Shown piece by piece: positions 42,177 to 64,000 of a DNA stretch of 64,000 nt. Position numbers and translations under genes: made by a program. Within the stretch, counting starts at the first letter, position 1, and each line of letters starts with the position of its first letter. The stretch comes from Patescibacteria group bacterium (GTDB taxonomy: Bacteria > Patescibacteriota > Patescibacteriia > S139-126 > S139-133), in the NCBI GenBank assembly GCA_049604715.1, contig JBMYTV010000002.1:56455-120454 (forward strand), in the 5' to 3' direction. The notes beneath the pieces were generated by a model, which saw only the letters and a list, made by a program, of their open reading frames with translations, ran no database searches and was not told where the DNA came from.

Positions 42177-43007
42177 CTAGAACTTTTCTAAAACCCGTTG
42201 CCACACATCATTTATTGTCATAGGATCTTTTTTGTAAATTATGTCAATTGACTTCACGTCTACTGTTTGACTTCTATCATCAATACCTGGAGCAGAAATC
42301 ACAAACTCAAACCCTTCGGGAGACTGATATAGTTCACTAAAAACAAACTCAGCACGTGCAATGTTCCAATCCCCACTAGTACTAGGCGGGATGTACTGTG
42401 CAATAAAGTAGTCATAATTATCTAAATCAGTCTCATGGTTATAGCCATCGATCCGCAGCCGATCAAATCCCTCTTGTAAAGGAAAATTGTAATTAACAAC
42501 TCGTGCTGATCGTGGAGGAGCAAGTAAAAAGTTCTCTATACTCCTATACTGCGGTACGCGCTGACATAACCACCATTGTTTTTCCTCATCTCTAAGACAC
42601 GGCCATTCAATCTCTTCTAAGGCTTTATTCTGAACACCATGCCAGGCAAAATTCCAACCACTTTCACCTACAGCACCACCCAGCTGAATAAGTGGAACAG
42701 TATCCGCTCTATAAGTCAAAACCACCTCCACGGTGTCATATTGACGCGGAATAAACGAATGAATATATACAGGATCAATGATTACCTGCCAAAATTGATC
42801 ACCCACAAACCCTTTGGTTGTCAGTACTCGTAGCTCTGGATCTGGACCTGTAACCATAACATGCTCAGATGACACTGAATGCGATAGTATTCGCTCACCA
42901 TCAAGATCAAGATCAAGATACACCACATAACCAACAATACACACGAGACTTATAGCAAAAAGTGTGTGCAAAAATAATAGAAATATACGCTGTGGTGTAT
43001 AAGACAT
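42177..43007 (-). CDS. hypothetical protein with N-terminal membrane anchor
   Basis: 276 aa with a single N-terminal TM helix. Its start codon overlaps the start of the divergent + strand ORF. Confidence 0.4.
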   Translation of the reverse strand: MSYTPQRIFLLFLHTLFAISLVCIVGYVVYLDLDLDGERILSHSVSSEHVMVTGPDPELRVLTTKGFVGDQFWQVIIDPVYIHSFIPRQYDTVEVVLTYRADTVPLIQLGGAVGESGWNFAWHGVQNKALEEIEWPCLRDEEKQWWLCQRVPQYRSIENFLLAPPRSARVVNYNFPLQEGFDRLRIDGYNHETDLDNYDYFIAQYIPPSTSGDWNIARAEFVFSELYQSPEGFEFVISAPGIDDRSQTVDVKSIDIIYKKDPMTINDVWQRVLEKF

Positions 43008-43062
43008 GTTTCTAGTATACCATTTTCTTTTCTACAACATAAAAAAGCTATATACTGTATAT

Positions 43063-44298: not shown

Positions 44299-44310
44299 TA
44301 TACTAAAAAT

Positions 44311-45303: not shown

Positions 45304-45602
45304 GCAAAAAACCACGTCACTGCAGTGACTATTGTGGCTGAGATAGCCAAAGCTGACAGAAAAACTGTGCGGCTTTTTTTGTAGTATATATTGTACTTCT
45401 CCTTTTGAAGCCACATAAACCCAGCCTCAGGGATTACAAAAACAGAAACAATATGCCCGAAAGCACAAAGTAGTGACAGAGCTAGTCCATACCAGCCTAT
45501 ATACTGATACGAAATAATACCCATACTTCCGTGCCCAACTACAAAAAAGCCCCACACGACCTTGGTCAGTGGATGCATCTTCCGTTTTTTTAATTTATTC
45601 AA
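45300..45602 (-). CDS. small hypothetical membrane protein
   Basis: 100 aa with 3 hydrophobic helices. Confidence 0.3.
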   Translation of the reverse strand: MNKLKKRKMHPLTKVVWGFFVVGHGSMGIISYQYIGWYGLALSLLCAFGHIVSVFVIPEAGFMWLQKEKYNIYYKKSRTVFLSALAISATIVTAVTWFFA

Positions 45603-45618
45603 CGTAGTGCCCTTTCTT

Positions 45619-47871: not shown

Positions 47872-47957
47872 AAGTGTATTGTATCATAAAAGGTTGAGAA
47901 CCACCGCGTTTGCGATGGTTCTCGAAATTGTTTTTATTAAAAAAGGATTTACCGGTC

Positions 47958-48671
47958 TCAGGCTGATTGCTTTACTACCTTAGGCACAAACATCTTATGC
48001 GGCACGATATATACGTGCTCATTCGTACCTGGAATTTCAAAACTCTCAATAACTTTGCCATCGTATTTGGACATATCACCCATGCGAATAGAGCGCCCTG
48101 CGGTTCTTCTTCCATTGGGCCAATAATTGACAATCAGTGACTGGCCAAACGCTGGATGGGTGCAACGTTGAATCTGTACACTAACCACTCCACGTTCACC
48201 TACACAGGTCTTCCCGTTCATCTCATCCCTTTTAAATCCGAAGAAGTGGCGCTTTACTACGACGGGCTTACCATGCCTATCGTGAGCCACATAACCCTGG
48301 CGGTAAAAACTTCTTTGGATCTTTACCATCCCCGGGATATTTTCTTGAAATGCAGGGAATTCAAGGATGAACTCCTCATAGTTTATGAGGTCGTCATTTG
48401 CAGCTGCAATTGCAGCCTCTACTTGGTCTCTGGACATCACATCCACATAACTGATTGGATGTTTGTATCCTTTGAACGGGAGCGGATTGGGCGGCTCGGT
48501 CCACTTGGGAAGCTTCTTTACAAAAAGCGAACCGGTGAACAAAACTTCGTAGTTAGCCATCTGCCGGGGATCAAAGTAGGGACTTTCTTCATTATTTTTT
48601 TCCGCCGAAATAGCTGCGACCAGCATTTCTTCAGTGGTCTCTTTAAATGGTGCAAAAATCACATGTTTCAT
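47958..48671 (-). CDS. hypothetical soluble protein
   Basis: 237-aa ORF with no recognised motif. Confidence 0.4.
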   Translation of the reverse strand: MKHVIFAPFKETTEEMLVAAISAEKNNEESPYFDPRQMANYEVLFTGSLFVKKLPKWTEPPNPLPFKGYKHPISYVDVMSRDQVEAAIAAANDDLINYEEFILEFPAFQENIPGMVKIQRSFYRQGYVAHDRHGKPVVVKRHFFGFKRDEMNGKTCVGERGVVSVQIQRCTHPAFGQSLIVNYWPNGRRTAGRSIRMGDMSKYDGKVIESFEIPGTNEHVYIVPHKMFVPKVVKQSA

Positions 48672-48805
48672 GTGACCTCCTAATCCTTTTTTAGTGAGTA
48701 TTATATTTTTTTGGTGCTGCGAAAATACTTCATATAATACTACAAATTACAGAAAATGTCAATATGTGACATTTTTATTGTACTTTTCCCTTATATTAGC
48801 CTAAA

Positions 48806-49942
48806 CTACACCCTGTAAACTTGTAATAACTGCTCCACAATACGTCTCCAAAGGTATTTATCTTGGGCTAGATTAGCAGCTGTTTGGCTCATTTTTGCAT
48901 GTTCTTCTTTATTATCTAAAATATACTGTAGTTTTTCTGCTAACTTACGAGGATTGTTCTTCGGAACTACAAAGCCTGTCTGACCTTCTATGCCAACAGT
49001 CCGTACTCCTGGTAAATCTGATGCTATAATAGGACTTGCGCAGGCAAGTGCCTCAACCAACACTATACCAAACGCCTCACTCATATCAGTACTAGGAAGT
49101 ACTGTGACGTAAGCGTTTCTATACCAATCAGGCATGACAATATCTTCTTGGTACCCAGTGAACGTAACCCTATCTGCAATTCCCAAATCAGATGCCTGCT
49201 TTTTATACTCATTAATCATATCCCCTTTACCAACACATACCAAATGCCAATCATTACTTGAAATTTCCGCACACGCCCGGAGTAGTACATGCACTCCTTT
49301 AAAATAGTGCTCACGCCGAAGTCCTCCAACAAACAAGATGATCTTTTTATTGCTATCAATACTATACTTCTTGAAAAGCTCTAAACTTTTTTCACCCGGC
49401 TTATACTCTTCAGTCACACCAAAGGGTAATTCTACAAATTTTTCAGGGTTTCGCTCTGCATACAACCGAACATATGAGTGCAGCGCATAGTCACGAGTTG
49501 ATACAAAAACAATTTTTGCTGCTTTTATAAGCAAAGGTAAAACAAAAAACCTATGCACACGAAAAAGCAAACCAAGCCATCCAGTAGATACTGTATCCAT
49601 ATGATAAAACACATACAACCTCTTACCTTTTCTCCTACCTACAAACAATTGCCATAAAACAACAAACACACCCATTCCATACGCTGGGTAATGTAACTGA
49701 ATTACATTGTATTTTTTTAGATGTCTAACTACCTGTGGACAAAACGCAGCCAACCCCCAGAAAAACAAAGGCTTTAGATAATGCACTGTATACGGAGTAT
49801 CAATCTTTTCATTAGTATAGGCTGGTGTAATCACCTCTACATCTTCCCCAAACTCATGCAAATACTTAGCATAGTACCATGGCACTTGCCCCATACCACC
49901 TTTGTATGGCGGAAAAACAGTTGTAATTTGTGCAATTTTCAT
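48806..49942 (-). CDS. family-4 (GT-B) glycosyltransferase
   Basis: EAFGIVLVEALACASPIIASD (E-x7-E motif of GT4/GT1 retaining transferases). 378 aa. Confidence 0.8.
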   Translation of the reverse strand: MKIAQITTVFPPYKGGMGQVPWYYAKYLHEFGEDVEVITPAYTNEKIDTPYTVHYLKPLFFWGLAAFCPQVVRHLKKYNVIQLHYPAYGMGVFVVLWQLFVGRRKGKRLYVFYHMDTVSTGWLGLLFRVHRFFVLPLLIKAAKIVFVSTRDYALHSYVRLYAERNPEKFVELPFGVTEEYKPGEKSLELFKKYSIDSNKKIILFVGGLRREHYFKGVHVLLRACAEISSNDWHLVCVGKGDMINEYKKQASDLGIADRVTFTGYQEDIVMPDWYRNAYVTVLPSTDMSEAFGIVLVEALACASPIIASDLPGVRTVGIEGQTGFVVPKNNPRKLAEKLQYILDNKEEHAKMSQTAANLAQDKYLWRRIVEQLLQVYRV

Positions 49943-50851
49943 TTATCTATTCTTAAACCATTCCCAGGTTAATTGCAGCCCTTGTTCAAATGTGACCTTT
50001 GGCTCCCAGCCAAGATCTTGTTTTATCTTGTCGTACTTAAGCACACTTCGCATCATTTCTCCTTCAACATAACTCTCATGTATTGCTTGAGTATCTGAAC
50101 CAGCAACCTTTGCTTGTAGGTCATACAGATCATCAACTGAAATCTCAGTGTTGGTAGATACAATATACACGCCCATACCCTTAGTAATTCCTGTCATAAG
50201 CGCGTCAACCATATCACCAACATAAACAAAATCTCTTGTTTGTTTACCACCAAATATCTTTGAGGTATTACCCTCAAGCATGCTTTCAAAAAATAAAGCT
50301 ATAACCCCAGCCTCACCTTTTGGATCTTGCCGAGGCCCATACACATTTGATGGCCGAAAGCTTAGTGTCTCTATACCCTGAATCGTATGATAATACTGCA
50401 AAAAATTATCAATTGTCTGTTTTGCTAAGCCATATGGTGATAGCGGCATCTCTGGAGCCTCTTCATCTGCCGCGCCCTGAGCTTGATCATAGATAGCACC
50501 GCCTGATGATACAAAAATGATTTTTTTTGCACCTACTCTTTTTGCACTTTCCAAAATATTCAAACCTCCCAAAATATTCACTTCTGCATCAAATAATGGA
50601 TTTTCTAGTGAAACTCGTACATTTTTTTGGGCAGCCAAATGATACACTATGTCAGGCTTAAATTGACCAAAAAGCGACTCAACCTTTTTGTCTTGAATTT
50701 CAATCTGCTCAAAACTTGCTTTTGGGTTTATGTACTTTTTACTTCCTGTAGAAAGATCATCCAGTATCAATACATCATGACCTGCAACAATCAATGCGTC
50801 AACTAAATGAGAACCTATAAATCCCGCTCCTCCAGTAACCAAAATCTTCAT
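49943..50851 (-). CDS. NAD-dependent nucleotide-sugar epimerase/dehydratase (GalE/WbpP-like)
   Basis: MKILVTGGAGFIGSHLVD Rossmann motif and YxxxK region (SPYGLAKQ). Confidence 0.85.
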   Translation of the reverse strand: MKILVTGGAGFIGSHLVDALIVAGHDVLILDDLSTGSKKYINPKASFEQIEIQDKKVESLFGQFKPDIVYHLAAQKNVRVSLENPLFDAEVNILGGLNILESAKRVGAKKIIFVSSGGAIYDQAQGAADEEAPEMPLSPYGLAKQTIDNFLQYYHTIQGIETLSFRPSNVYGPRQDPKGEAGVIALFFESMLEGNTSKIFGGKQTRDFVYVGDMVDALMTGITKGMGVYIVSTNTEISVDDLYDLQAKVAGSDTQAIHESYVEGEMMRSVLKYDKIKQDLGWEPKVTFEQGLQLTWEWFKNR

Positions 50852-51882
50852 ACTATAAAATTTTTAACAATACTAAAGTAAATTCTAAAAATTGGATTGT
50901 ATACAAAACGCAGCGCAAATGACTTAATACCATCAAACTTAAGACTTGTGGTCATCACTCGCATTATTTCTTTATCTGACATTGTCCTTATCTGACGAGT
51001 ATGACTACGCTCTTTGATAATATGAAAAATACTTAGTATAAATCCGCCATAGCTTTTTATCTTCCACATACCCCAACCTGAGATAAATGCATAAAAAATC
51101 ATAGCAACTTCAGTTGCAAGTAATGCTGGTAGCAACAAACAAATAGTCCAAAGTCGATACCTTGAAGCAAGTACTAGTAGGCGATTACGTTCTGCATAAT
51201 AAAACTTTTTGCCTCCAAGGGTAAAAGTGTGATCATGAAATACAACACTCTGACTGGCAAGCCTAACCCTAAAGCCTGCCAAGCGAGCCCGCCATGAATA
51301 ATCTACATCTTCGTGGTACATAAACAAATACTCGTCAAGTAAACCAATTCGCTCTAATACACTTCGCTTGATAAGCATACTAGCACCTGATGCAACTGGC
51401 ACATCTCTATCCTCAGTATAATCACTACTCAAGTGCTTGTATCCGCCTGACCATGAAAAACCAAGCGGATGCAGTGGATTGCCAATAGTATCAACACGAA
51501 ACGCCTGCTGCATGAACAAGATCTTACTTTGCACTATACCAACATACGGATCTTCATCAGCAGTAACTACAAGATGCTCAAGCCAAGTATCACGCGGCTT
51601 TGTATCATCATTCAGAAGAACAACTGCATCATACCCACGCTCTAGCGCATACATAATACCAAGGTTATTACCCTTGGCAAATCCTAAATTTCTTTTCTGT
51701 GGCAAAAGCAGTACATCTGAAAAGTCCTTGGATACAATGTCTACAGTTGCATCGCTTGATGCATTATCAACAACCATTACGTCGTATTTGTCCTTGGCGT
51801 AGCTCTGAGAATAAACAGACCGCAAGCAGGTTGCGATGCGATCTTGAGCATTATAGGTAACTATGATAACGATAATTCGCAT
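50848..51882 (-). CDS. family-2 glycosyltransferase
   Basis: IIVIIVTYNAQDRIATCLRSV...DVMVVDNASSDAT. 344 aa. Confidence 0.8.
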   Translation of the reverse strand: MRIIVIIVTYNAQDRIATCLRSVYSQSYAKDKYDVMVVDNASSDATVDIVSKDFSDVLLLPQKRNLGFAKGNNLGIMYALERGYDAVVLLNDDTKPRDTWLEHLVVTADEDPYVGIVQSKILFMQQAFRVDTIGNPLHPLGFSWSGGYKHLSSDYTEDRDVPVASGASMLIKRSVLERIGLLDEYLFMYHEDVDYSWRARLAGFRVRLASQSVVFHDHTFTLGGKKFYYAERNRLLVLASRYRLWTICLLLPALLATEVAMIFYAFISGWGMWKIKSYGGFILSIFHIIKERSHTRQIRTMSDKEIMRVMTTSLKFDGIKSFALRFVYNPIFRIYFSIVKNFIV

Positions 51883-52241
51883 TATTCTAAAGTTTTATCT
51901 GTATTTGATTTTTTAACATTACGTATAGCAACTTCACGTGTAAGCTCAGTAATACTCTTTTCAATTCTATCAATTTTACTATAAAGTCGAAAAATTATAT
52001 AAAACAAAACTGGAATTGCCATATACACAGCCAGATCAACGCCCCTACCAGTCTCAAGTCCAACGCCCTGAGCTAGCTGGTCAGTTGTTTGTGGCAAAGC
52101 TGCAGCAATACCAACTGCAATCCAAAAAACTGTCCACCAAAGCCACTCTTTGAAACTGATATCAGACTGCACGTAACGCACAAAAACACGAATACATGCA
52201 AACGCTGCAAACAAGGCTATTATTATCTGAAATACTGTCAT
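51882..52241 (-). CDS. small membrane protein (DUF2304-like) commonly paired with GT2 enzymes
   Basis: 119 aa with 3 TM helices then a charged C-terminus. The DUF2304 assignment is from memory of the gene-neighbourhood pattern. Confidence 0.45.
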   Translation of the reverse strand: MTVFQIIIALFAAFACIRVFVRYVQSDISFKEWLWWTVFWIAVGIAAALPQTTDQLAQGVGLETGRGVDLAVYMAIPVLFYIIFRLYSKIDRIEKSITELTREVAIRNVKKSNTDKTLE

Positions 52242-52242
52242 A

Positions 52243-52908
52243 CTATTTTACTAGTTTAGCCTTTATTAAATCAAAAACTATACGAATCCCCCCACTCAAA
52301 CCCTGACCAAACTCATGATAAAGGATATCAACTGGTACCTCAGTGAAGGTGAGTTTGTTTAGCTTGATCTTTTCTAAAATCTCACTTGCATGTGCCTTCC
52401 CATCTTGTGTGATGTGAATAGTCTCTGCAGCATTTCGTGAAAGAGCACGAAAACCACAATGCGCATCTGTAAGCCACAAGCCTGTAAAAAGGACATTAAC
52501 AACACGCCCCACTGGATGAATAAAATATCTTTTTAAAAATGGCAATTCTTTTGTTGACCTCAAATAGCGTGAACCAAGTGTCACCTCAAAATCACCGTCA
52601 GCTATCGGCTGTATCATCGCCTTTATGTCACTAGCCTGCATCTGACCATCAGCATCAAAGTGAACTATAATATCCGCACCATTTCTCAGAGCGTACTGTG
52701 TGCCTGTTTCAAGCGCCGCGCCCTGATCTCTGTTTATAACATGCCTCAATACATGCGCTCCAGCAATAAGCGCTTTTTGTGATGTTGCATCTTTTGAACC
52801 ATCGTCAACAACAACTATATTGCTGTATCCATGCGCATACAAGTCTTCTACAACATTTTTAATGCGCTTTTCTTCATAATATGCCGGAATAACAACAAAA
52901 ATATTCAT
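52243..52908 (-). CDS. GT2, polyprenyl-phosphate sugar synthase-like (DPM1/GtrB/CsbB-like)
   Basis: 221 aa single-domain GT-A: MNIFVVIPAYYEEKRI...VVVDDGSKDAT. Confidence 0.8.
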   Translation of the reverse strand: MNIFVVIPAYYEEKRIKNVVEDLYAHGYSNIVVVDDGSKDATSQKALIAGAHVLRHVINRDQGAALETGTQYALRNGADIIVHFDADGQMQASDIKAMIQPIADGDFEVTLGSRYLRSTKELPFLKRYFIHPVGRVVNVLFTGLWLTDAHCGFRALSRNAAETIHITQDGKAHASEILEKIKLNKLTFTEVPVDILYHEFGQGLSGGIRIVFDLIKAKLVK

Positions 52909-52910
52909 GC

Positions 52911-53918
52911 CTAGACATTTAATACACCGTGTTGAGACTGCATAAACTCAATAGTCTTGCCCATACCTTCTTCAATTCCAACAAGCGGAAACCAACCAAG
53001 ATCTTGCTTGGCACTAGCGATATCAGGCAAGCCTTCTCGGTATACAAATGGATATTTCTCTGCTTCACGTATCTCAGAGCTAGATTCTGCTAATGTAACA
53101 ATCATATCTGCCACATCCCGAACGCGATACGCCTCAGGATGACCAAAATTATAAGGACCTGACTTATCTGAATTCATAAACTTAATAAGCCCATCAATCA
53201 AATCATCAATATACAAAAATGACGCCACCATAGACTCAAGGTTACCATGAATAGTAATTGGATCATCTTCAAGTGCATGTGCAATAAAATCTGGAATTAA
53301 CCTTCCATCATTAAGCTTCATCTTTGGGCCGTATGTTTTGAAAATACGAGCTACTTTTGTTTGTAACTTATGATGTACATTAAAGTTCCCAACCATTGTC
53401 TCAGCAAAACGCTTTCCTTCATTATATGAACTACGTGGCCCTAGCATATCAACGTACCCGTGATAATCCTCCTTAAACCGTGACATACCAGGAAGAAGAG
53501 CTCCATACACAGCTGCTGTTGAGGCATGCAAAAACTTTGACCCATATTCTTTGGCAACCATCAGCGCATTATAAGTAGCATGAGAATTTGCTAGAAGTGT
53601 CTCGAGCGGCACATCATTATAGTGCTTCGGTGATGTTGGACATGCCAAATGGTACACCTCATGCAGACCCTTATACTTAAGTTGGAATGCATCAAGCTCA
53701 GGAAATTTTCGAAAATCAAGCGCCTGCACTAAGTCATGTTTTAGAAATTTAAAATTTGGATATGTCAAAAGCAGGTCGATATTTTTTTCGCTACCAGTAA
53801 TAAAATTATCAACACAAATGACGTGGTGACCTTCACGAACAAATCGATCACAAAGGTGTGATCCAATAAATCCGGCGCCACCCGTTATGAGTATATTTTT
53901 TGTGGTTTCTTGGGCCAT
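52911..53918 (-). CDS. UDP-glucuronate decarboxylase (UDP-xylose synthase)-like SDR
   Basis: ILITGGAGFIGSHLCDRFVREGHHVICVDNFITGSEKNI closely resembles the UXS/ArnA-decarboxylase N-terminus. 335 aa. Confidence 0.75.
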   Translation of the reverse strand: MAQETTKNILITGGAGFIGSHLCDRFVREGHHVICVDNFITGSEKNIDLLLTYPNFKFLKHDLVQALDFRKFPELDAFQLKYKGLHEVYHLACPTSPKHYNDVPLETLLANSHATYNALMVAKEYGSKFLHASTAAVYGALLPGMSRFKEDYHGYVDMLGPRSSYNEGKRFAETMVGNFNVHHKLQTKVARIFKTYGPKMKLNDGRLIPDFIAHALEDDPITIHGNLESMVASFLYIDDLIDGLIKFMNSDKSGPYNFGHPEAYRVRDVADMIVTLAESSSEIREAEKYPFVYREGLPDIASAKQDLGWFPLVGIEEGMGKTIEFMQSQHGVLNV

Positions 53919-53926
53919 AAGGATAC

Positions 53927-54637
53927 CTATTTAAAGCGTTTGCGTAATTGAAATGTTGTTTTGAGCATTCGGAGTGATGTTTGAACGAGTTTGTATTTGG
54001 TTGTTATAAAAGTGGATGCTTTATTTTCTTCCCAATATGTTGGAACTTCAGTAATTTGATAATTATGCTGTTTACAAAGTAGCAAAAGCTCAATATCAAA
54101 TGCCATGTTGTTTACACTCAAGTCAGGTAATATTTTTTTAATGACATCCTGCTTAAATACTTTTGCCCCGCACTGAGTATCTGCATAAGGTAGCTCTACA
54201 ATAAGACGAACCAAAAACCTAAACCCATATCCCGCAATCCGGCGGAACCATGATACTCTGTTTGCTATTTCAGCACCCTCTGCATACCGCGACGCAATTG
54301 TACCATCTACATTTTCAAGTGCTTGCAGTAACTTGTTAAACTCTCGAGCTGGTGTAGAGCCATCAGCATCAACATATCCAACATATTCATTTCTGATTGA
54401 GGTAAATCCCAGACGAACTGCCCACCCTTTTCCATAACTCTCTTTATGCACTTCATATGTAATCCTCTCAGGATACTTTGCTTGCCAGTCTTTGACCACA
54501 CTTTCTGTATTATCAGAACACCCGTTGAGTACAACGTGAAACAGTACCGAATCAGCCATTGTGGTTAGGTAGTCCTCAAACATTGGCCCTATCCGCTCTG
54601 CTTCATTGTATGCTGGTACCACTAGTGTTACATCCAT
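53927..54637 (-). CDS. GT2, polyprenyl-phosphate sugar synthase-like (second copy)
   Basis: MDVTLVVPAYNEAERI...VVLNGCSDNT. 236 aa. Confidence 0.75.
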   Translation of the reverse strand: MDVTLVVPAYNEAERIGPMFEDYLTTMADSVLFHVVLNGCSDNTESVVKDWQAKYPERITYEVHKESYGKGWAVRLGFTSIRNEYVGYVDADGSTPAREFNKLLQALENVDGTIASRYAEGAEIANRVSWFRRIAGYGFRFLVRLIVELPYADTQCGAKVFKQDVIKKILPDLSVNNMAFDIELLLLCKQHNYQITEVPTYWEENKASTFITTKYKLVQTSLRMLKTTFQLRKRFK

Positions 54638-54641
54638 ATGG

Positions 54642-55097
54642 TTATTCTGGGTTTATCATACCTTTTTCCGTGCGAAATGACCAGTATTTATGAGCAGTAA
54701 AATTCCAAAATGTACCAATACCCATGGCTATAACTTTGGCTAAAATATCATAGAGCTTAAACTCTACGACACCTATATACAAAATTGACTGAACCAGTGC
54801 TATGTAAATCAATGCAACAGTCCAAAACTTCAAATACTGCTTGGCTATATTCTTTGATTTGTTTCTGAATGTGTAGTGTTTATTTAGAAAAAAAGATGAG
54901 GTTGTGGCAATAATAAAAGCAACAATATTTGCTCCCAAATAATTTGTTTGCCAAAAATCAAATGTACGTGTCAATCCAATGTAAATACTAAAATCAAGAA
55001 CAGCATTAGTAGCCCCAACTAATAAAAAAACAAACACTTCTCTACCAAGTGGAATATGTTTATCTACATAGTGTTGTATTTTATTAAATATTCTCAT
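54642..55097 (-). CDS. GtrA-family small membrane protein (lipid-linked sugar translocation)
   Basis: 151 aa with 4 TM helices. LVGATNAVLDFSIYIGL is GtrA-like. Confidence 0.7.
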   Translation of the reverse strand: MRIFNKIQHYVDKHIPLGREVFVFLLVGATNAVLDFSIYIGLTRTFDFWQTNYLGANIVAFIIATTSSFFLNKHYTFRNKSKNIAKQYLKFWTVALIYIALVQSILYIGVVEFKLYDILAKVIAMGIGTFWNFTAHKYWSFRTEKGMINPE

Positions 55098-56983
55098 TAG
55101 TCATACACCAATGATCCCACGCGTACACCACCCGCAAAATTTGGGCTATACGCTTGGAGGGTTTGTTGTTTGTTTCCAAGCCAATCAAAAATACCAACCT
55201 CAGGCGCCATTCCAGCGCTATTTCCTACTACTACCTGTGTTAATCCATCACCATTCATATCAGTCGCCATAACAGTAAAGCCGCCCTTTATATTTTCTGG
55301 TGCTGCAAACCACTGACTAGCAATTGACCCATTTGGTGAAAAAATACGTATATGCGCTCCGCCATCTGCCGCTGGTGCAGTGATTATCTCAGATGAACCG
55401 TTTACGGCAATGTCACCAACTGCAACGTTTACACCACCGCGGAAGTTTTCATTGTACGCCATGAACTGACTTTGTACTGCACCTTGAGCATTAAATACTC
55501 TAACATGCGGACCGCCACCACTACCTGCTCCGGTTATAATTTCTGCAATTCCGTCCCCGTTAGTATCACCAACTGCAACGTTCACACCACCGCGAAATGC
55601 TGGATTATAAGCCATAAATTCATACTCAATAATACCATTCATATCAAAAACTCGAATAAGTGGAACATGATCATTTGTTGTCGCTGTGATGACTTCCACA
55701 AATCCGTCATTATCAACGTCACCACTTGCTGTACTAACACCGCCGCGGTAATACGACTCAAACGCAAACCACTGACTCAAAATATTTCCTTGATAATCAA
55801 GAACTCTAACATGCGGACCGCCTTGGCTGGCTGGTCCTGTGATCACGTATGACCTGTTTACTGCACTAGTTGGGTTACCACCAAGTGTAGCGTGTGCAGT
55901 TTCTAAACTAGCTTCAGCATTTACCACTCCAGATCCGACTTTGCCTTTAAACTCATTTTGCTGCAGAGCATCAATAGAATCGGATGAATTCACAATAATG
56001 TCACGAATCTGAGCAGGAGTAAGGCTAGGGTTTTTGGCTTTTATGAGAGCTGCTAAACCAGACACAACCGGGGCGGCCACTGATGTTCCACTCCAACCAC
56101 CGCCATAAGCCTCGCTAAATGAATCATTTTCAGGATCATAAACTTGTGTACCATAAAAAGAAACCCCAGGCGCAGCTACGTCAACACATTTTGATCCATA
56201 ATTTGAAAAATTAGTCAGAACATTAAACTGATCAAGTGCAGCTACACCAATAACCATGTTTTGAGCACCGTCATAACAAACAGGATACGCAGCATCAACT
56301 GCTAGATCCTTTGGCGCCTCACCTTCGTTACCAGATGCAGCAACCAGCACCACACCTTGGTTGTATGCTCTGGTGATTGCTTGTTCTAAATCAAAACTAT
56401 AATCACTCCCTACAAAACTTAAGTTAATAATATCTGCACCCTGTGCCACTGCATAGTCAATTGCACGAGCCACTTGAGACGCGTCACCATTACCTTGATT
56501 GTTTAGAACTTTAATAGGCATTATTTTAATCTGCCATGCCATTCCTGCTACACCAACACCATTGGCTCCTCGCGCACCAATAACCCCTGCTATGATTGTG
56601 CCGTGTTGCGCAGCCGAAAACTCAGCATCGGCAACATCAGGAATAACATTGTTATTGTTCTCCAAAAAATTCCATCCATAAAAATCATCCGTATAACCAT
56701 TACGATCATTGTCAATCTGATCATAAGGAATCTCTGATGTATTTACCCAAATATTATCTCGAAGATCTGGATGATTTATATCAACGCCTGTATCAAGTAC
56801 AGCAACTACAATATCATAGGAGCCTTGTGTATATTCCCATGCCCGTGGAGCTTTGATGTGTGGCAAATACCACTGTCTAAAAAAATCAGGGTCATTTGGA
56901 ACAATAGCAAAAGTAGGCTGTGCAATAACAAACAAGCCCAAGACAAATATGCTTAACCGTAAAAATATATTTTCTTTTTTCAT
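55097..56983 (-). CDS. secreted subtilisin-like serine protease (S8) with C-terminal FG-GAP/VCBS-type repeats
   Basis: Signal peptide, then the catalytic Asp (VAVLDTGVD), His (HGTIIAGVIGA) and Ser (GTSVAAPVVSGLAAL) motifs. The C-terminal repeats have the form GDxNGDG..E(V)I(T)...GGxHVR(V)F. Confidence 0.85.
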   Translation of the reverse strand: MKKENIFLRLSIFVLGLFVIAQPTFAIVPNDPDFFRQWYLPHIKAPRAWEYTQGSYDIVVAVLDTGVDINHPDLRDNIWVNTSEIPYDQIDNDRNGYTDDFYGWNFLENNNNVIPDVADAEFSAAQHGTIIAGVIGARGANGVGVAGMAWQIKIMPIKVLNNQGNGDASQVARAIDYAVAQGADIINLSFVGSDYSFDLEQAITRAYNQGVVLVAASGNEGEAPKDLAVDAAYPVCYDGAQNMVIGVAALDQFNVLTNFSNYGSKCVDVAAPGVSFYGTQVYDPENDSFSEAYGGGWSGTSVAAPVVSGLAALIKAKNPSLTPAQIRDIIVNSSDSIDALQQNEFKGKVGSGVVNAEASLETAHATLGGNPTSAVNRSYVITGPASQGGPHVRVLDYQGNILSQWFAFESYYRGGVSTASGDVDNDGFVEVITATTNDHVPLIRVFDMNGIIEYEFMAYNPAFRGGVNVAVGDTNGDGIAEIITGAGSGGGPHVRVFNAQGAVQSQFMAYNENFRGGVNVAVGDIAVNGSSEIITAPAADGGAHIRIFSPNGSIASQWFAAPENIKGGFTVMATDMNGDGLTQVVVGNSAGMAPEVGIFDWLGNKQQTLQAYSPNFAGGVRVGSLVYD

Positions 56984-57042: not shown

Positions 57043-58704
57043 CTAAAGCAACCCTTGCTGCTTTAAATAATCACACACCATATCAACCGCCTCTGTGACA
57101 CTTGTCTCAGATGTATCAATACTGATCTCAGCACTATCAGGCTCTTCATAAGGGTCGTCAATGCCAGTCACATTTTGGATTAGTCCGGCCTCTGCTTTTG
57201 AATACAAACCTTTTACATCACGTTGCTTACATACCGCAAGGGGTGTTGCCACATGCACCTCAATGTATACACCATATGTTGAGATTAGTTCACGATTATA
57301 GTCACGCGACTGAGCATACGGTGCAATAGCAGCGCACAGCGCAATACCACCGTGACGTACGACCTCAGCTGCGACAAAGCCAATACGCTGCACATTTGTA
57401 TTTCTATCTTCTTTGGAAAATCCTAAACCTTTTGATAAATGTTGCCGGATAATATCTCCATCAAGGTACGTTATTGGCCGATGCTGAATCTCTAGAAGTC
57501 TAGTATGAAGAGCTTGTGCTATAGTGCTCTTACCTGCCCCAGAAAGTCCTGTGAAGAAAAGTGTAAATCCACGAACTGAATCCACATATCGTGATGACTG
57601 CAACTCATCAAGTACTTCAGGAAATGAAAACCATTCAGGAATTTGTTCGTTTTTCGCAAGCTTGTTTCTAAACTCTGTCCCTGAGATGTAAAGTGGTTTT
57701 GAATTTTCAGTTTGTTCGTGAGTAGAGATGTATTGTTTTGTATGACCATCATAAAAAAGTTCGGGTGCAGATATTACCTTTATACCAATTTCATCTGCAA
57801 ACTGCTGTACATACTCTTGTGCATCATACAACCCATAAAAAGGATTGCCATTACTATCCTTACCAGGTCCCGCATGATCTCTACCAATAATAAAATGAGT
57901 ACATCCATAGTTTTTTCTTATAAGCGCATGCCACAAGGCCTCACGCGGCCCACCCATTCGCATAGCAAGCGGTAGCAAGCTTAACATAGTAAACTCCGGA
58001 GCATATTTTTCATGCACATGTTGATATGCACGTACACGTGTAATAGCATCTATATCACCTGTTTTAGTCTCACCAACAGCCGGATGGATGAGTACTGTCC
58101 CACCATGCTCCTCTGATGCTCGTTTGATCACTTCAAAATGTGCACGATGCAGAGGATTGCGAGTTTGAAAGCCAACCAATGTATCTATGTTATTCTGAAG
58201 TTTGTATTCATGTATCTCCTCTGGGGTTTTATAAAGGGACTGGAATAATTCATGCGATGGGATTGCAATTCTCTCAATAATACCACCAATGTATACGGGA
58301 TGAGTTTCAGATAAAATATATGAAACCCCGAAATGACTTTCATCGTCAGTTCCATACACTTGTTTAACCTCGTGTTCTTTATCAGGAACAAAAACTGACT
58401 CAACTAACATTAGCGCCAGTAAATTACCATATGCATCACAAAGCGCGACTTCTTGCCCTTCTGTATATGTGTGGTTTTCAGGAACATCAAGAACAACCGG
58501 CATTGGCCATACTGATCCATTTGGAAGTCTGGCATTATCCACAACTGACTTATACTCATCTTCAGTCATAAATCCAGTGAGCGGCGCAAATCCACCATTC
58601 AAAATAAGCTCCAAATCACTTAACTGGCGTTTGGTCAACCTGATATGCGGTATATGTAAAGCGCGCTGTTTTAGCGCCTCATATGTAGTCTTTTTTGTAT
58701 TCAT
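57043..58704 (-). CDS. bifunctional sulfate adenylyltransferase (ATP sulfurylase) / adenylylsulfate kinase (PAPS synthase)
   Basis: N-terminal ATP-sulfurylase motifs QTRNPLHRAHFE and GRDHAGPG. C-terminal APS kinase P-loop FFTGLSGAGKSTIAQAL. 553 aa. Confidence 0.9.
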   Translation of the reverse strand: MNTKKTTYEALKQRALHIPHIRLTKRQLSDLELILNGGFAPLTGFMTEDEYKSVVDNARLPNGSVWPMPVVLDVPENHTYTEGQEVALCDAYGNLLALMLVESVFVPDKEHEVKQVYGTDDESHFGVSYILSETHPVYIGGIIERIAIPSHELFQSLYKTPEEIHEYKLQNNIDTLVGFQTRNPLHRAHFEVIKRASEEHGGTVLIHPAVGETKTGDIDAITRVRAYQHVHEKYAPEFTMLSLLPLAMRMGGPREALWHALIRKNYGCTHFIIGRDHAGPGKDSNGNPFYGLYDAQEYVQQFADEIGIKVISAPELFYDGHTKQYISTHEQTENSKPLYISGTEFRNKLAKNEQIPEWFSFPEVLDELQSSRYVDSVRGFTLFFTGLSGAGKSTIAQALHTRLLEIQHRPITYLDGDIIRQHLSKGLGFSKEDRNTNVQRIGFVAAEVVRHGGIALCAAIAPYAQSRDYNRELISTYGVYIEVHVATPLAVCKQRDVKGLYSKAEAGLIQNVTGIDDPYEEPDSAEISIDTSETSVTEAVDMVCDYLKQQGLL

Positions 58705-58846
58705 AACCCTTTAATAATAACAGATATACTGATCTAATAAAATAAATGCCTGGGGGTATTGATTTTTTTCAAGATTTATGTTTTAATATGAGGTCAAATC
58801 TTATATTTAGCTATTTTTTTAGGCTTAACCCTAGTATAATAGTGAT

Positions 58847-60202
58847 ATGACTATAAAAACACGTAAAATACTAATGATTCTTGGTGATATAGGCATCTTT
58901 TATGCCTCTCTTTACCTTGCATTGACTATTCGTACTCAAACCCTTGTCACGCAAGGTGTGTGGGCTGATCATTGGCCTACTTTTACTGTTGTGTTTGGTT
59001 TATGGATTATTGGGCTCTACATAATTGATTTTTATGACCTTTCATCTGCTAAAAATGACCGAAAATTTATCATCCGTGTTGGCGTTGCTGCAGCTGTACT
59101 AACTACACTTGCTGTGTTGTATTTCTATACCATACCAAACCTCCGCATTGCACCAAAGACTATTTTGATCATTGATGTTTTGATTACACTGGCACTTCTT
59201 ATTGGATGGCGCCTAGCATTCAACAAACAAGCAAAGAACGCATCTCACTCACTAATTGCTATTGGTATTGGTTCTTCTGGTCAATCATTGCTTCAAGAAA
59301 TTCAGAACACTCCTCAGTGGGGGTACAAAACAGTAGCAATTTTTGATGAAAATGCTAAACCTGAATTTTCACCTATACCTACCTTTACTACACTTGATAA
59401 TCTGTCTCAGATTATTTCAGATACAGACACAAAGACTATTGTAGTTGATGACAAGCTGTACACATCAGAGAGATATATCAACACACTCTTTTCTATTATC
59501 AGCCCTGATATCACTATCATTCCCCTTACACTTTTATACGAACAAATTGCACAAAAAATTCCTGTACAAAGCATTTCAAAATCATGGTTTTTAGAAAATA
59601 TTAGCAAACATGACCATGACATTCATGACAAGATACAACGTTTGGTTGATATTGTGTTCTCACTATTCCTGCTTGTCATTACCTTACCTCTCTATCCATT
59701 AATCATACTTGCTATCAAGCTTGATTCACCTGGTCCAGCATTTTATAGACAAGAACGGCTAGGATATTTAGGCAAACCATTTATGATGATTAAATTCCGC
59801 ACAATGGTTGAAAAAGCGGAGAAAAATGGAGCGCAGTGGGCACAAAAAAATGACCCCCGTATAACTCGAGTAGGCAAATGGATGCGCAAATCCCGCATTG
59901 ATGAGCTCCCGCAAATGATGAATATTTTAAAAGGTGAAATGAGCTTTATAGGACCTCGTGCTGAAAGACAGGCATTTATTGAGCAGCTTGAACAAGAGCT
60001 TCCATTTTACAAACAAAGACTACTTGTCAAACCAGGAGCAAGTGGCTGGGCACAGGTCAATTATAAGTATGGCGCTAGTGTTGAAGATGCTTTAGAAAAA
60101 TTACAATACGATTTATACTACGTAAAAAATCGTAACTGGTATTTGGATGCCAGCATTGTACTCAAAACTATCAAAATTATGAGTAGCCTTGGAGGGCAAT
60201 AA
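58847..60202 (+). CDS. polyprenyl-phosphate sugar-1-phosphate transferase (WbaP/PglC 'bacterial sugar transferase' family)
   Basis: 451 aa with N-terminal TM helices and C-terminal Bac_transf motifs (MMIKFRTM...DELPQMMNILKGEMSFIGPRAE). Confidence 0.85.
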   Translation: MTIKTRKILMILGDIGIFYASLYLALTIRTQTLVTQGVWADHWPTFTVVFGLWIIGLYIIDFYDLSSAKNDRKFIIRVGVAAAVLTTLAVLYFYTIPNLRIAPKTILIIDVLITLALLIGWRLAFNKQAKNASHSLIAIGIGSSGQSLLQEIQNTPQWGYKTVAIFDENAKPEFSPIPTFTTLDNLSQIISDTDTKTIVVDDKLYTSERYINTLFSIISPDITIIPLTLLYEQIAQKIPVQSISKSWFLENISKHDHDIHDKIQRLVDIVFSLFLLVITLPLYPLIILAIKLDSPGPAFYRQERLGYLGKPFMMIKFRTMVEKAEKNGAQWAQKNDPRITRVGKWMRKSRIDELPQMMNILKGEMSFIGPRAERQAFIEQLEQELPFYKQRLLVKPGASGWAQVNYKYGASVEDALEKLQYDLYYVKNRNWYLDASIVLKTIKIMSSLGGQ

Positions 60203-60204
60203 AC

Positions 60205-61455
60205 ATGGTTGAAAAAATAAAAGTCATGCTATTCAAACTTCTTAGGAAGTCAGAAAAATACACCAAAACAGACATGGTGTATTTAGCCAAAGGCGGCTTT
60301 TGGCTAGGTATGAGCAAAATGGTGAGCGCTGGCTCTGCATTTTTGCTAGCTCTGGCATTTGCTAACCTGCTTCCTCAAGAAGAGTATGGTACTTACAAAT
60401 TTATTTTCTCAATTGTCAGCATACTTATTATAAGTTCAATGCCTGGTATTAATACTGCTCTTACACAGGCAGTTGCCAGAGGCTTTGAGGGGTCAATACT
60501 AACAAGTGTTAAAACAAAAATAAAATGGTCAACACTTGGTGCGCTTGGCAGTTTAGCTATAGCTGCATATTACTATATAAACAATGACCCAACACTTACA
60601 TATGCGTTTTTAATAGCTGCGATTTTCTTACCTTTCATTGACTCGTTCAATGTCTATGAACCATATCTGCAAGGAAGAAAAATGTTCAAGCAGTCAGCTA
60701 TCTTAAGCTCTATCCTGCAGAGCACCACAGTACTGTCTATGATAGCGTTTTTGTTCTTCACCAACAATGTAATTCTTGTTGTTGCAGCACACTTTGTGAT
60801 GTACACGTTGATCAAGTACATTTTCTACCTGTTTGTTACAAAAAAGTACAAACCAAATAATAAGATTGACCCTGGGTCAGTATCCTATGGCAGACATCTT
60901 TCATTCATTAATGTTATAGGCACAATTGGCGGACAAATTGACAAAATTCTATTGTGGCATTTCTTAGGTGCGGCATCACTGGCTGTGTACGCATTTGCCT
61001 TAGCTCCAGTTGATCAATTCCGTAGCATGCTTAAGTCTCTAAATATCCTTGCGTTTCCAAAACTAGCAGCGCAAGATACCGCAGTACTCAAAAAAACAAT
61101 TCCACAAAAAATGCTAAAGCTGTTTTTACTGCTCATTATACCTGTTACAGCATATATTCTTTTGGCACCGTACCTGTATAAAATATTTTTCCCTTTATAT
61201 GCAGAATCAGTCGAATACACCAGATGGTATGCGCTTTTTTTACTGAAATTCCCTACCAATCTTATGGGACAAACCCTCACTGCCAAAAAACAACAAAGAA
61301 CTCAATATAAATTAAAAATTATTAACCTTATTACAAAAATAACACTGTTTTTAGTTCTTACACCTATATTTGGCATCCATGGCGCTATTGCTACACTTCT
61401 AATCGCCCCAGTTATCAATAGCATTTTGGTTGCGTATCATTTCTATAAACTATGA
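60205..61455 (+). CDS. Wzx-like polysaccharide flippase (second copy)
   Basis: 416 aa with about 12 TM helices and polysaccharide-biosynthesis-protein-like topology. Confidence 0.7.
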   Translation: MVEKIKVMLFKLLRKSEKYTKTDMVYLAKGGFWLGMSKMVSAGSAFLLALAFANLLPQEEYGTYKFIFSIVSILIISSMPGINTALTQAVARGFEGSILTSVKTKIKWSTLGALGSLAIAAYYYINNDPTLTYAFLIAAIFLPFIDSFNVYEPYLQGRKMFKQSAILSSILQSTTVLSMIAFLFFTNNVILVVAAHFVMYTLIKYIFYLFVTKKYKPNNKIDPGSVSYGRHLSFINVIGTIGGQIDKILLWHFLGAASLAVYAFALAPVDQFRSMLKSLNILAFPKLAAQDTAVLKKTIPQKMLKLFLLLIIPVTAYILLAPYLYKIFFPLYAESVEYTRWYALFLLKFPTNLMGQTLTAKKQQRTQYKLKIINLITKITLFLVLTPIFGIHGAIATLLIAPVINSILVAYHFYKL

Positions 61456-62353
61456 GCAATATAACGAACTTTGATATTGACTTTATTGGCATTGGAACAG
61501 GTCATGCTGGCACGAGTTGGGTATTTACATGTATTAAAGAACACCCAGCAGTCTGTGATGCAAAGAAAAAAGAAACAAAGTTTTTCCGTGATCATTATCA
61601 TAAGGGCATTGAATATTATGCATCCCTCTTTTCATCATGTGATGACACACTTTTAAAAGGTGAATTTACACCTAGTTATATGTATGATGAGACAATTGCT
61701 GAACGCATTCATGCACACTTTCCTAAAGCTAAGATTATTGTTTGTCTCAGACATCCGTATGAACGTTTGCGGTCTGCGTATTACTTTAATAAACAACGCG
61801 CAGTTCTTTCGTTTGAAAATTTGAATAAAAAGATTCAATATGATATTGAAGCTGCTACCGGCACTGGCAGTGAACTCATTCGACAAGGAAACTACTACTC
61901 TTTTTTGAAGAAATATTATAAATTATTTGGAGCTTCCCAAATCCATATAATTTATTACGAAGATATAAAAAATAATCCTGAAAAAGTTATTGAAACCGTA
62001 TATAAATTCTTGTCTATCGACCCAAAGTACACCCCTTCTTCTCTTTCAAAAAAATCAATGTTACTGCACGTAACAAACGCTATATTGCTAGTCTCCCAAA
62101 AATTAAAACAAAGGTAAGTACATGGTTGCTACAAAGTTCTGTTGGCAAAGTCATCTTGAATATTGCGCGTACTACAGGTGTCACATCAATTGTAAACCGC
62201 ATACTGAAGCACAATATACGTCATTCAAACCTAGATCCCATACATAAAGAAATGTTATCTGATACCACAAAAAAATCATTACGCCAAATATATGCGAATG
62301 ATATTAAAGACTTAGAATCACTTTTGAAAAATAAAACTCCCTGGAACTTATAA
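61452..62353 (+). pseudogene. PAPS-dependent sulfotransferase interrupted by a -1/+2 frameshift in an A7 homopolymer (61452..62117 plus 62126..62353)
   Basis: The N-terminal part has a 5'-PSB-like IGTGHAGTSW motif and a 3'-PB-like RHPYERLRSAYY motif. The second ORF continues the same protein in another frame. Adding one A to the run at 62048..62054 joins them into a roughly 296-aa ORF (…SLSKKINVTARNKRYIASLPKIK…). Confidence 0.55.
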
Positions 62354-62355
62354 AA

Positions 62356-64000
62356 TTATCTCGCTCTCAAATACGCTACCAACTTTGTATTTACTTTCAA
62401 ACTACTTTTCTGCATTATACGCTTCATACCTGAAGTGGTACTTTTTTTGATAATCACAGGATACCGACGAGCTCTGAATTGGGCTCTTTTTATATGCTGC
62501 AACCAAGTTGGATCATGCAGCAAGCTACTTAGCGACAGACCAATATGTGGATACCAGCAACGGGTGTATGTCTTTGATTTTGGTGTAAGACTTAAGATGG
62601 GTTGATCATGTCGTGGATCGTCAGGTGCCCCAACTATATCAAAACTTTCCTCAAAACGAATCGGCTTCTCTTTATACGCGTAGTAAAACTCATAATCAAG
62701 CAGCCATACTTTTCTATCAGTATCAACAAGCACATCAACAGGGTGAGCATCATACAAATAATACCCCTGCGTATAAAAACATTTTAAAATATCCATAGCC
62801 TTTTTCGCAGCCCACAGTGGCATGATCCAGCCACGCGAATACTCGTGCATAGGTTCGTAGTATGGATACATAATATAATTTGGACCCTTTTCAACTAACG
62901 GTGGCACGCCTTGACACTTTTCAGCAAATTCAGTCGCTGCATATATAGACCTATCTAAAAATTTTTCTCTACCTGGACGAAACGTTTTTTTGACGTATTG
63001 CTTACAATCACTCTTTTCTATAAGCTCTACTTTGGCGCGTCTTCCATTTTTAGTTAAATCACTTATAACACGCTCATTAGTCGCAAACACTTCTTGCATA
63101 TTCTGTATTTCTTGCATAATTACACTTTTTTCTTCTTGAGTAAAAATAAAACTCATGTACTCAAGCGCTTCAGCGGCAGTATCACTTGAATGAATAGGAT
63201 TGTAGCTTTCACTTTTCGAAAGTGAGTGATTAATAAACTCGCGAATCCGATGTTTCACAAGTATTCGCTCATTATCAATTCCTGCAAACCTTATCTCTTG
63301 CATAGGTGACAGATTACGCGGTAGTAAATCATAAACAACATACATGTGCGCTGGCTTTCCGCCAGAAACTGGCCATGGACCTTTGTTCCAATTGCCACCC
63401 CTTGCCTCCTCAGTTAGCGTATCTTTTTGTTGTTCACTCAAACTTTCAGATCGCAAAACATTAAATCCCTCATCTTCCAATGTTTTTTGTATAAAGGGTA
63501 ATCTATTTTCTTTTACTGCTTGCTCACGAACAATAAAAACAGTCAAACCTCTGAGCTCAGTATGCAGACTATCTGCAAAATGATAATCCTTTATCCATTC
63601 ATTTTGCTTAGCAAGACGCCTGAGCATATCACGCGCAGGTTGAAGGCCATGTTCTTTTAAAAACCTATCTAAATCCTCTAGTTTATACTTTCCAGTGTAT
63701 GCAACAGCATCAGCGTACTTCTGCATCTCAGCAACGTAGTCGTGATCAGGGCTTTCTTCAGGGCTAGTAGGTTTAGTAGAACTTGGTACACCAGATATAT
63801 ATCCCTTGTGATACAGAGCATGATATGCGAGTGAGTAAAAACTGTGCTTTTTATCTGGGACATAAGCGCCAGATGATTCATCAAAAGTGGCTGAGCTCAA
63901 AATGCTCTTAGCAATTTTTGGTGGGAAATATGACATGCCACTATACTCAAATCCAGGTTGACCAGTAATTGAATATGCATCACAGGGGATAAGTCCTGGC
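62356..64000 (-). CDS. two-domain hypothetical protein with C-terminal protein-kinase-like fold (Kdo/WaaP/APH-like); may start upstream of the window
   Basis: The C-terminal half has a Lys-containing beta-strand (KQYVKKTF), a catalytic-loop-like DAHPVDVLVD and an iDxE/DFG-like LLDYEF. The reading frame is still open from 63937 to the window end. Confidence 0.5.
   Translation of the reverse strand, partial: PGLIPCDAYSITGQPGFEYSGMSYFPPKIAKSILSSATFDESSGAYVPDKKHSFYSLAYHALYHKGYISGVPSSTKPTSPEESPDHDYVAEMQKYADAVAYTGKYKLEDLDRFLKEHGLQPARDMLRRLAKQNEWIKDYHFADSLHTELRGLTVFIVREQAVKENRLPFIQKTLEDEGFNVLRSESLSEQQKDTLTEEARGGNWNKGPWPVSGGKPAHMYVVYDLLPRNLSPMQEIRFAGIDNERILVKHRIREFINHSLSKSESYNPIHSSDTAAEALEYMSFIFTQEEKSVIMQEIQNMQEVFATNERVISDLTKNGRRAKVELIEKSDCKQYVKKTFRPGREKFLDRSIYAATEFAEKCQGVPPLVEKGPNYIMYPYYEPMHEYSRGWIMPLWAAKKAMDILKCFYTQGYYLYDAHPVDVLVDTDRKVWLLDYEFYYAYKEKPIRFEESFDIVGAPDDPRHDQPILSLTPKSKTYTRCWYPHIGLSLSSLLHDPTWLQHIKRAQFRARRYPVIIKKSTTSGMKRIMQKSSLKVNTKLVAYLRAR

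Follow-up and report, generated by a model that had tools for sequence, protein, structure and literature searches.

The textbook example of a private supply of 3'-phosphoadenosine 5'-phosphosulfate (PAPS) encoded beside its own sulfotransferase is the rhizobial nodPQ-nodH set for sulfation of the Nod factor; its acceptor is a lipo-chitooligosaccharide signal, its sulfurylase is of the CysDN type and its sulfotransferase belongs to another subfamily than the one treated here. Among polysaccharide clusters, that for the capsule of Cobetia marina contains cysNC, cysD, cysQ, a sulfate permease and a sulfotransferase, and its sulfated capsular polysaccharide has been shown by nuclear magnetic resonance (PMC11766843). 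The synechan (xss) cluster of Synechocystis 6803 is of the Wzx/Wzy type and has two sulfotransferases, which act on the repeat unit (PMC8205485). In the candidate phyla radiation (CPR), He et al. 2021 listed sat, cysC and cysN for dozens of genomes of CPR/DPANN, assigned them to sulfate reduction and credited them with 'a potential role in transformations to sulfite' (PMC7906910), a reading that has been echoed in reviews. Here we describe a stretch of 64,000 nt from a Patescibacteria group bacterium (GenBank assembly GCA_049604715.1, contig JBMYTV010000002.1, positions 56,455 to 120,454 of the forward strand), called the window below, in which a gene for PAPS synthesis (sat-cysC) and a sulfotransferase gene lie together among glycan genes. 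We consider it likely that they belong to a Wzx-dependent surface-glycan cluster that encodes its own source of activated sulfate, and whose sulfotransferase gene is interrupted, as assembled, by the shortening of a run of eight A to seven (A8 to A7).

The window shares with the Cobetia cluster the building of PAPS-synthesis genes and a sulfotransferase into a polysaccharide cluster (PMC11766843), but it has a Sat-CysC fusion and a Wzx route where Cobetia has a CysDN-type sulfurylase, ABC (Kps) export, cysQ and a permease. With synechan it shares a Wzx-type cluster that includes a sulfotransferase; it differs in that no PAPS-synthesis genes are described in the xss cluster and that the xss host is a free-living phototroph (PMC8205485). 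The combination of PAPS genes and a sulfotransferase in a polysaccharide cluster is therefore a design already known from other bacteria, and no new principle is involved. The glycan cluster of the window extends from about 43 kb to its end and comprises two Wzx flippases, five family 2 glycosyltransferases (GT2), one GT4, two epimerase/dehydratases, DUF2304, GtrA and a subtilase. A contig of the Logan assembly of SRR27204692 (L001/L067), which is 100% identical to the window over 8,436 bases, A7 included, adds 4.7 kb past the window with a GT2, a TOD1/MUCI70-like protein, a methyltransferase and two GT4s. The features of the sulfation module are as follows.

57043..58704, minus strand: Sat-CysC, a fusion of ATP sulfurylase and adenosine 5'-phosphosulfate (APS) kinase, 553 aa, MGB0757152.1 (Pfam, NCBIfam, PDB match, motifs)
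58705..58846: divergent AT-rich spacer of 142 bp between Sat-CysC (minus) and the PGT-Wzx-sulfotransferase operon (plus) (coordinates)
58847..60202, plus strand: polyprenyl-phosphate glycosyl-1-phosphate transferase (PGT), the initiating enzyme, 451 aa (Bac_transf 1e-65 and CoA_binding_3; TIGR03025)
60205..61455, plus strand: second Wzx-type flippase, 416 aa (Pfam Polysacc_synt 3e-20)
61452..62117, plus strand: frame-0 part of the sulfotransferase, its N-terminal two thirds, 221 aa, MGB0757155.1 (Sulfotransfer_1, family profile)
62048..62054, plus strand: A7 run and site of the frame break; ...SLSKKINVTARNKRY... is recovered by adding one A or by a -1 slip on A_AAA_AAA (alignment with homologues)
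62048..62353, plus strand: C-terminal ~100 residues of the sulfotransferase, read in frame -1 without a stop until the TAA at 62351-62353 (translation, family profile)

The preliminary description of this DNA had proposed a single 553-aa protein joining ATP sulfurylase to APS kinase, with the motifs QTRN, GRDHAG and GLSGAGKST, and the domain searches agree with it. Pfam places PUA_2 at residues 5-145, ATP-sulfurylase at 156-370 (4e-76) and APS_kinase at 378-530 (2e-57), and the protein scores 759.5 bits (cut-off 669) over residues 6-553 on NF004040, the NCBIfam equivalog for bifunctional sulfate adenylyltransferase/adenylylsulfate kinase. Its best PDB match is 2GKS, the bifunctional SAT/APS kinase of Aquifex aeolicus (1.5e-155, residues 16-552), which has the same domain order (PUA-like, sulfurylase, C-terminal kinase) and likewise an intact kinase P-loop and DGD; the present protein differs in sitting in a CPR glycan cluster. 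All catalytic motifs are intact. Those of the sulfurylase (QTRN 180-183, HRAH 186-189, GRDHAG 274-279) align with 2GKS, and the kinase keeps the Walker A P-loop GLSGAGKST (386-394) and LDGD (414-417), together with FSKEDR and KGLY. The ATP sulfurylase of Penicillium chrysogenum (1I2D, E 1.8e-148) is alike in architecture, but its APS-kinase-like C-terminal domain is allosteric, with a degenerate P-loop (GYMNSGKDA) and LLGD; in both motifs Sat-CysC agrees with the active Aquifex enzyme and not with this regulatory domain. Because the APS kinase motifs are intact, unlike those of 1I2D, Sat-CysC should belong to the catalytically active enzymes and yield PAPS rather than APS as its final product. 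No riboswitch, of the S-adenosylmethionine (SAM) class or other, was found before the gene, the Rfam search of the whole window giving no matches, and neither the promoter-like matches in the 142-bp spacer nor the scan for promoters and terminators in general exceeded shuffled sequences.

On the other side of the spacer the genes are tightly packed. The PGT, which scores 362 bits on NCBIfam TIGR03025 EPS_sugtrans (cut-off 295.6), is separated by only 2 nt from the Wzx gene, and the sulfotransferase gene starts at 61452, within the end of the Wzx gene at 61455, so that the two overlap by 4 nt (ATGA), as had been proposed before. The earlier distance of 3.7 kb between Sat-CysC and the sulfotransferase was loose, the two start codons being 2.75 kb apart. 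The frame-0 part of the sulfotransferase matches Sulfotransfer_1 (1.3e-18, 67.7 bits, cut-off 22, profile positions 3-183 of 255) and Sulfotransfer_3 (4e-13). The best PDB sequence matches of the sulfotransferase are the bacterial 3RNL, the heparan sulfate (HS) 3-O-sulfotransferases 3-OST-1/3/5 and the sulfotransferase domain of NDST1. The AlphaFold2 model of the joined protein (pLDDT 87.5, pTM 0.80), in which the tail forms four helices (214-292), was aligned by Foldseek over its whole length (about 305-313 columns) onto 3RNL, the 3-OSTs and NDST1 with a probability of 1.00, and the top 50 matches were all sulfotransferases. The proposal of a PAPS-type sulfotransferase was thus upheld, and an unrelated P-loop family was excluded.

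The joined 300-aa sulfotransferase was used as the query against a collection of 5.8 billion proteins, which gave 42 proteins including the window's own 221-aa entry. Over these 42 sequences (the window and 41 homologues), K40, R100 and S108 are invariant and E41 is present in 41. The residues lie in the KE..FF motif (40-45) and in the 3'-phosphate-binding (3'-PB) motif RHPYERLRS (100-108), whose R100 and S108 are, by motif, the pair that binds the 3'-phosphate; the 5'-phosphosulfate-binding (5'-PSB) loop is GTGHAGTSW (15-23). E41 aligns with QE.HFF of 3-OST-5, and in 3-OSTs the catalytic base is the Glu of this (K/Q)E..FF motif. By sequence and predicted fold, then, the protein is a genuine PAPS-type carbohydrate sulfotransferase of the HS 3-OST/NST-like kind. 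The HS 3-OSTs, the NDST domain and 3RNL are its best matches in both sequence and structure and share the 5'-PSB loop and the 3'-PB Arg/Ser with it. It is only 15-19% identical to them, however, has His in place of the 5'-PSB Lys, is encoded by a frameshifted gene, and its family, unlike them, has a C-terminal segment of its own with a KKxNxT motif and a terminal Trp.

The sulfotransferase had been taken as one open reading frame (ORF) reaching to 62353. Frame 0 in fact ends at 62117 (TAA) after 221 aa, and 62353 is the stop of the -1 frame past the A7 run. From 62048 that frame reads KKINVTARNKRY...TPWNL followed by the stop, 101 codons without interruption. On the family profile the frame-0 piece covers positions 3-201 and the -1 piece positions 190-293 (E 1.3e-24), so that no single frame holds a complete sulfotransferase domain. 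The 41 homologues, the window's own entry excluded, are all single ORFs, nearly all of 263-332 aa, the best of them covering 95-99% of the query, and none of them carries the frameshift. They cross the junction in one frame (NKKSNITAKNKRC in P0002, EKKINITAENERY in P0006), and the window's SLSKKINVTARNKRY aligns there with IINKKSNITAKNKRC of P0002. Because the two pieces match consecutive parts of the profile in different frames and the homologues align through the junction, we concluded that the gene is one base short relative to its family. The tail has retained the conserved N203, N255, D284, L288 and W298 and is undecayed, which points to an event that is recent or reversible, or else to an error. 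Relatives also have in-frame A-runs at the Lys-Lys codons of the junction (AATAAAAAATCA in L002, GAAAAAAAG in L003), so that the site is naturally prone to indels. A variant genetic code does not account for the break, because every other ORF is intact under table 11 and frame 0 is closed by TAA. We also rejected a split protein, because in the tail start codons are lacking upstream of about 62126, a point already past the KKxNxT motif. In six-frame translations of the window no second sulfotransferase of the family was found, only the two pieces of one gene. The 221-aa product, judged on the model, would be the fold minus one third and is unlikely to work. The locus's only sulfotransferase in this assembly is thus off, decaying or mis-assembled, beside an intact gene for PAPS synthesis.

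Related loci were collected from both ends of the module. A scan of species-representative genomes, among which the window's own genome is not included, with an alignment of the 8 closest sulfotransferases gave 55 loci. In Kaiserbacteria (L003) the order is Wzx, sulfotransferase (299 aa), acyltransferase, GT2, TOD1_MUCI70, Sat-CysC (547 aa), Inositol_P, GT1, methyltransferase and GT1, and identities to the proteins of the window locus are 52% for Sat-CysC, 49% for TOD1, 51% for GT2 and 33% for Wzx. L002 has Wzx (53% identical to that of the window) and a 300-aa sulfotransferase, the same GT2, and a methyltransferase-TOD1 fusion; in both L002 and L003 the Wzx orthologue lies directly upstream of the sulfotransferase. 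A Parcubacteria contig present in many samples carries methyltransferase, sulfotransferase and Inositol_P. In Saccharibacteria L010 (SAT and APSK) and L011 (APSK) and in Nealsonbacteria L028 (InoP, sulfotransferase, SAT, APSK), PAPS genes lie no more than 10 kb from the sulfotransferase, as they do outside the CPR in Virgibacillus, Thalassobacillus and a Chlorobiota metagenome-assembled genome (MAG). The TOD1/MUCI70 protein, of a family known from plant pectin biosynthesis, adjoins the same GT2 in three sulfation loci (L001:2453-3181, shortly beyond the end of the window; L003:9122-9874; L002:4835-6088). The closest full-length sulfotransferase (49% identity) occurs with Wzx, GT2 and methyltransferase-TOD1 on CAZPVP010000011.1 (L008/L013), which is binned as 'uncultured Gammaproteobacteria' and also encodes a second member of the sulfotransferase family (33% identity); the module on this contig may reflect mis-binning or lateral transfer.

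More than 8,000 relatives of Sat-CysC were found at E <= 1e-50, the named top matches being from Pacebacteria, Uhrbacteria, Levybacteria and Zambryskibacteria. Nine CPR Sat-CysC neighbourhoods were compared, the window and L003 counted in, and eight of them are glycan clusters. A sulfotransferase recognisable by Pfam lies within 10 kb of Sat-CysC in four (the window, L003, L065 with Sulfotransfer_2 and L069 with Sulfotransfer_1). CysQ-like (Inositol_P) genes are present in the relatives L003, L005, L028 and L065, two of them among the nine neighbourhoods, and in L065 the gene directly follows Sat-CysC. L066 and L069 match the order of the window (SatCysC, PGT, subtilase, GtrA, epimerase, GT2, DUF2304), and the order GtrA, epimerase(s), GT2, DUF2304, GT2 is common to the window and L069. 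A glycan cluster that includes both a sulfotransferase and PAPS-synthesis gene(s) was thus observed in the window and in L003, L028, L065 and L069. In four CPR genomes an O-antigen-ligase-like Wzy_C protein of ~680-740 aa, in most cases with faint TPR matches, closely follows Sat-CysC (L064:9714-11762, L065:4749-6959, L068:11741-13912, L070:11768-13957), in L065 after the CysQ-like gene; downstream of it come MurB, in two of the four genomes, and then SecA. No Wzy_C/TPR protein like that beside Sat-CysC in L065, L068 and L070 was found in the window.

As to the cause of the frameshift, it is most likely that a 1-nt deletion (A8 to A7) in the Lys-Lys A-run is real and recent, and that the gene is an 'off' variant or a very young pseudogene. 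An error of sequencing or consensus at a true A8, with an intact 300-aa sulfotransferase in an organism that makes the sulfated glycan, appears unlikely to us. It would fit the fully open tail with every conserved residue kept and the intact Sat-CysC, and homopolymers are classic sites of indel errors. Against it, the window has 73 long homopolymers (A/T of at least 7 or G/C of at least 6), and no further broken gene was seen at the other 72 in the ORF maps; the two assemblies are identical base for base; the NCBI annotation likewise gives 221 aa (MGB0757155.1), with one sequence version on record; and no 300-aa version was found among the 5.8 billion proteins. The ORF maps, the identical A7 in the Logan copy and the lack of a 300-aa version on record together speak against systematic artefacts at homopolymers. 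A programmed shift or phase variation at the A7 run is possible, and surface-glycan-modifying genes are typical contingency loci. The run could act as a switch, either by slipped-strand change between A7 and A8 that makes sulfation phase-variable or by a -1 ribosomal or transcriptional slip that yields some full-length enzyme. The site is exactly a slippery heptamer of the form X_XXY_YYZ, A_AAA_AAA in frame 0 at 62048-62054, a -1 slip on which gives the family consensus SKKINVT, and the undecayed tail also speaks for such a switch. Nevertheless, A7 is short for efficient slippage, the shift occurs in no homologue, no Shine-Dalgarno-like element was found upstream of the run, and a stimulatory RNA structure downstream was not supported (z = +0.77; 156 of 200 shuffles fold as well), so that we regard a switch as rather improbable.

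The use of PAPS and the acceptor of sulfate can also be read in other ways. Sat and CysC catalyse the first two steps of the PAPS-dependent assimilatory route, and the sat, cysC and cysN genes of CPR/DPANN were classed as sulfate-reduction genes by He et al. 2021 (PMC7906910), so that Sat-CysC might serve ordinary assimilation or the published 'sulfur cycling' with its position in a glycan cluster incidental. We consider this very unlikely. The absence of cysH, cysI and cysJ that had been noted before was confirmed: no PAPS/APS reductase (cysH), sulfite reductase (cysI, cysJ) or cysteine synthase was detected in Pfam scans of the 55 window ORFs of at least 110 aa that make up the main gene set (11 ORFs that are short, mostly antisense and overlap longer genes were omitted). 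Nor was a PAPS reductase, sulfite reductase or cysteine synthase found near Sat-CysC in the nine CPR neighbourhoods, whose glycan genes, sulfotransferases and CysQ-like genes are described above, and the gene lacks an upstream riboswitch. That the sulfotransferase acts on a lipid, a small molecule or a protein instead of a glycan seems to us more improbable still. The substrate is not readable from sequence, and bacterial Sulfotransfer_1/3 members also sulfate lipids and natural products (the CurM sulfotransferase 4gbm is a weak match); on the other hand, glycan sulfotransferases head the matches in both sequence and fold, with the tyrosylprotein and cytosolic enzymes scoring far lower, and translation of the gene is coupled here to that of Wzx, which it also follows directly in L002 and L003.

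Several observations weigh against a working sulfation system as we read it. The frameshifted gene is the only member of its family in the window, and the Logan contig may stem from the same reads as the MAG, in which case it is not independent proof of A7. The basic residue of the 5'-PSB loop is His18 in the window sulfotransferase and its two closest relatives, while Arg or Lys stands there in 38 of the 41 homologues (R 21, K 17 and H 3 across the family); this is a small caveat for activity, and the replacement is probably tolerated, because His is kept across about 45-49% identity. The preliminary description had suggested a search for cysQ and a sulfate permease, both of which accompany the Cobetia genes. 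Neither a CysQ-like phosphatase for 3'-phosphoadenosine 5'-phosphate (PAP) nor a recognisable sulfate transporter or permease was found either within the window or in the following 4.7 kb, and the Inositol_P proteins of L003, L005 and L065 gave no match to either. The sequence seen is the 64-kb window plus 4.7 kb, and cysH could exist elsewhere in the genome. Finally, in the literature searched no sulfated glycan has been demonstrated for any CPR bacterium and no paper connects Patescibacteria with sulfotransferases, and the search on CPR and cysH gave nothing informative.

Of the earlier proposal of dedicated glycan sulfation, the genomic part stands, in that both genes lie in a Wzx-dependent glycan cluster and the combination recurs in the CPR; the sulfotransferase, frameshifted in the assembly, counts against it and may be off in this genome. 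Glycan sulfation is nevertheless the best reading of the module on the sequence evidence, and the comparative CPR context agrees with it. In this reading, Sat-CysC would convert sulfate and 2 ATP through APS to PAPS in the cytoplasm, and PAPS would have no other use. The PGT would start an oligosaccharide on polyprenyl phosphate, which the neighbouring glycosyltransferases would extend. The sulfotransferase, translationally coupled to Wzx, would O-sulfate a sugar of the lipid-linked unit at the cytoplasmic face, presumably with Glu41 as the base and with PAPS held by the 5'-PSB and 3'-PB loops, and Wzx would then flip the sulfated unit outward. PAP would be removed by a CysQ-like enzyme, the gene for which is found in relatives and was not seen here.

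The other features of the window that bear on the cluster are listed below.

43006..44298: first Wzx (Pfam)
43006..55097: rest of the glycan cluster, with GT2s, a 750-aa membrane protein, GT4, two NAD-dependent sugar epimerases/dehydratases, DUF2304 and GtrA (Pfam)
55097..56983, minus strand: secreted subtilase with FG-GAP repeats (Peptidase_S8 8.5e-55 and FG-GAP)
62356..64000, minus strand: 3' part of a gene that converges with that of the sulfotransferase, extends to the equivalent of 64665 and encodes 769 aa (full gene on L001/L067, L067:6792-9101)

The subtilase gene is located between GtrA and Sat-CysC, and a Peptidase_S8 gene occupies the same slot in L066 (Uhrbacteria) and in L069; this conserved position suggests a link between the protease and the glycan cluster. 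The 750-aa polytopic membrane protein (45619-47871, minus strand) has a soluble C-terminal domain and matches no Pfam or NCBIfam family, and it is a candidate GT-C-type polymerase, ligase or oligosaccharyltransferase. For the 769-aa protein no Pfam or NCBIfam family was found even at E = 1, and no homologue is present in the related sulfation loci. Its C-terminus (…YDAHPVDVLVDTDRKVWLLDYEF…) resembles the catalytic loop and DFG-like region of the protein-kinase fold, with a faint match to the LanKC kinase region.

The upstream part of the window contains housekeeping genes and type IV pilus genes. The pilus set at 24828-35816 (plus strand) includes PilB, PilC, a 1146-aa pilin-like protein and PilM/N/O, and a VirD4/TraG-like type IV coupling protein is encoded at 289-2835 (minus strand); both are typical CPR surface machinery. 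At 17078-18005 (minus strand) three tandem small basic ORFs (103, 96 and 95 aa), which look like paralogues and share the motif '(V)P.(P)CW..V', sit in a 2-kb stretch without any ORF of at least 110 aa, tRNA or Rfam match.

The CPR sat and cysC genes have been published as sulfate-reduction genes; their neighbourhoods suggest glycan sulfation instead, and a re-reading is deserved. We put forward tentatively the wider proposal that sat-cysC genes in the CPR, and in DPANN, are generally genes for glycan sulfation, and that in the present bacterium sulfation is perhaps switched by poly-A slippage. If this is true, sat and cysC in metabolic surveys of CPR/DPANN would be rescored as biosynthetic decoration and not sulfur cycling, and the conserved module (Wzx-sulfotransferase, GT2, TOD1/MUCI70-like protein, methyltransferase and Sat-CysC, with or without CysQ) would be a compact source of genes with which heterologous hosts could be made to produce sulfated polysaccharides. 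It would also give CPR surfaces a concrete chemistry, namely sulfate esters on a Wzx-exported glycan, and many of these ultra-small episymbionts would carry a sulfated, polyanionic, glycosaminoglycan-like coat that may mediate attachment to the host cell.

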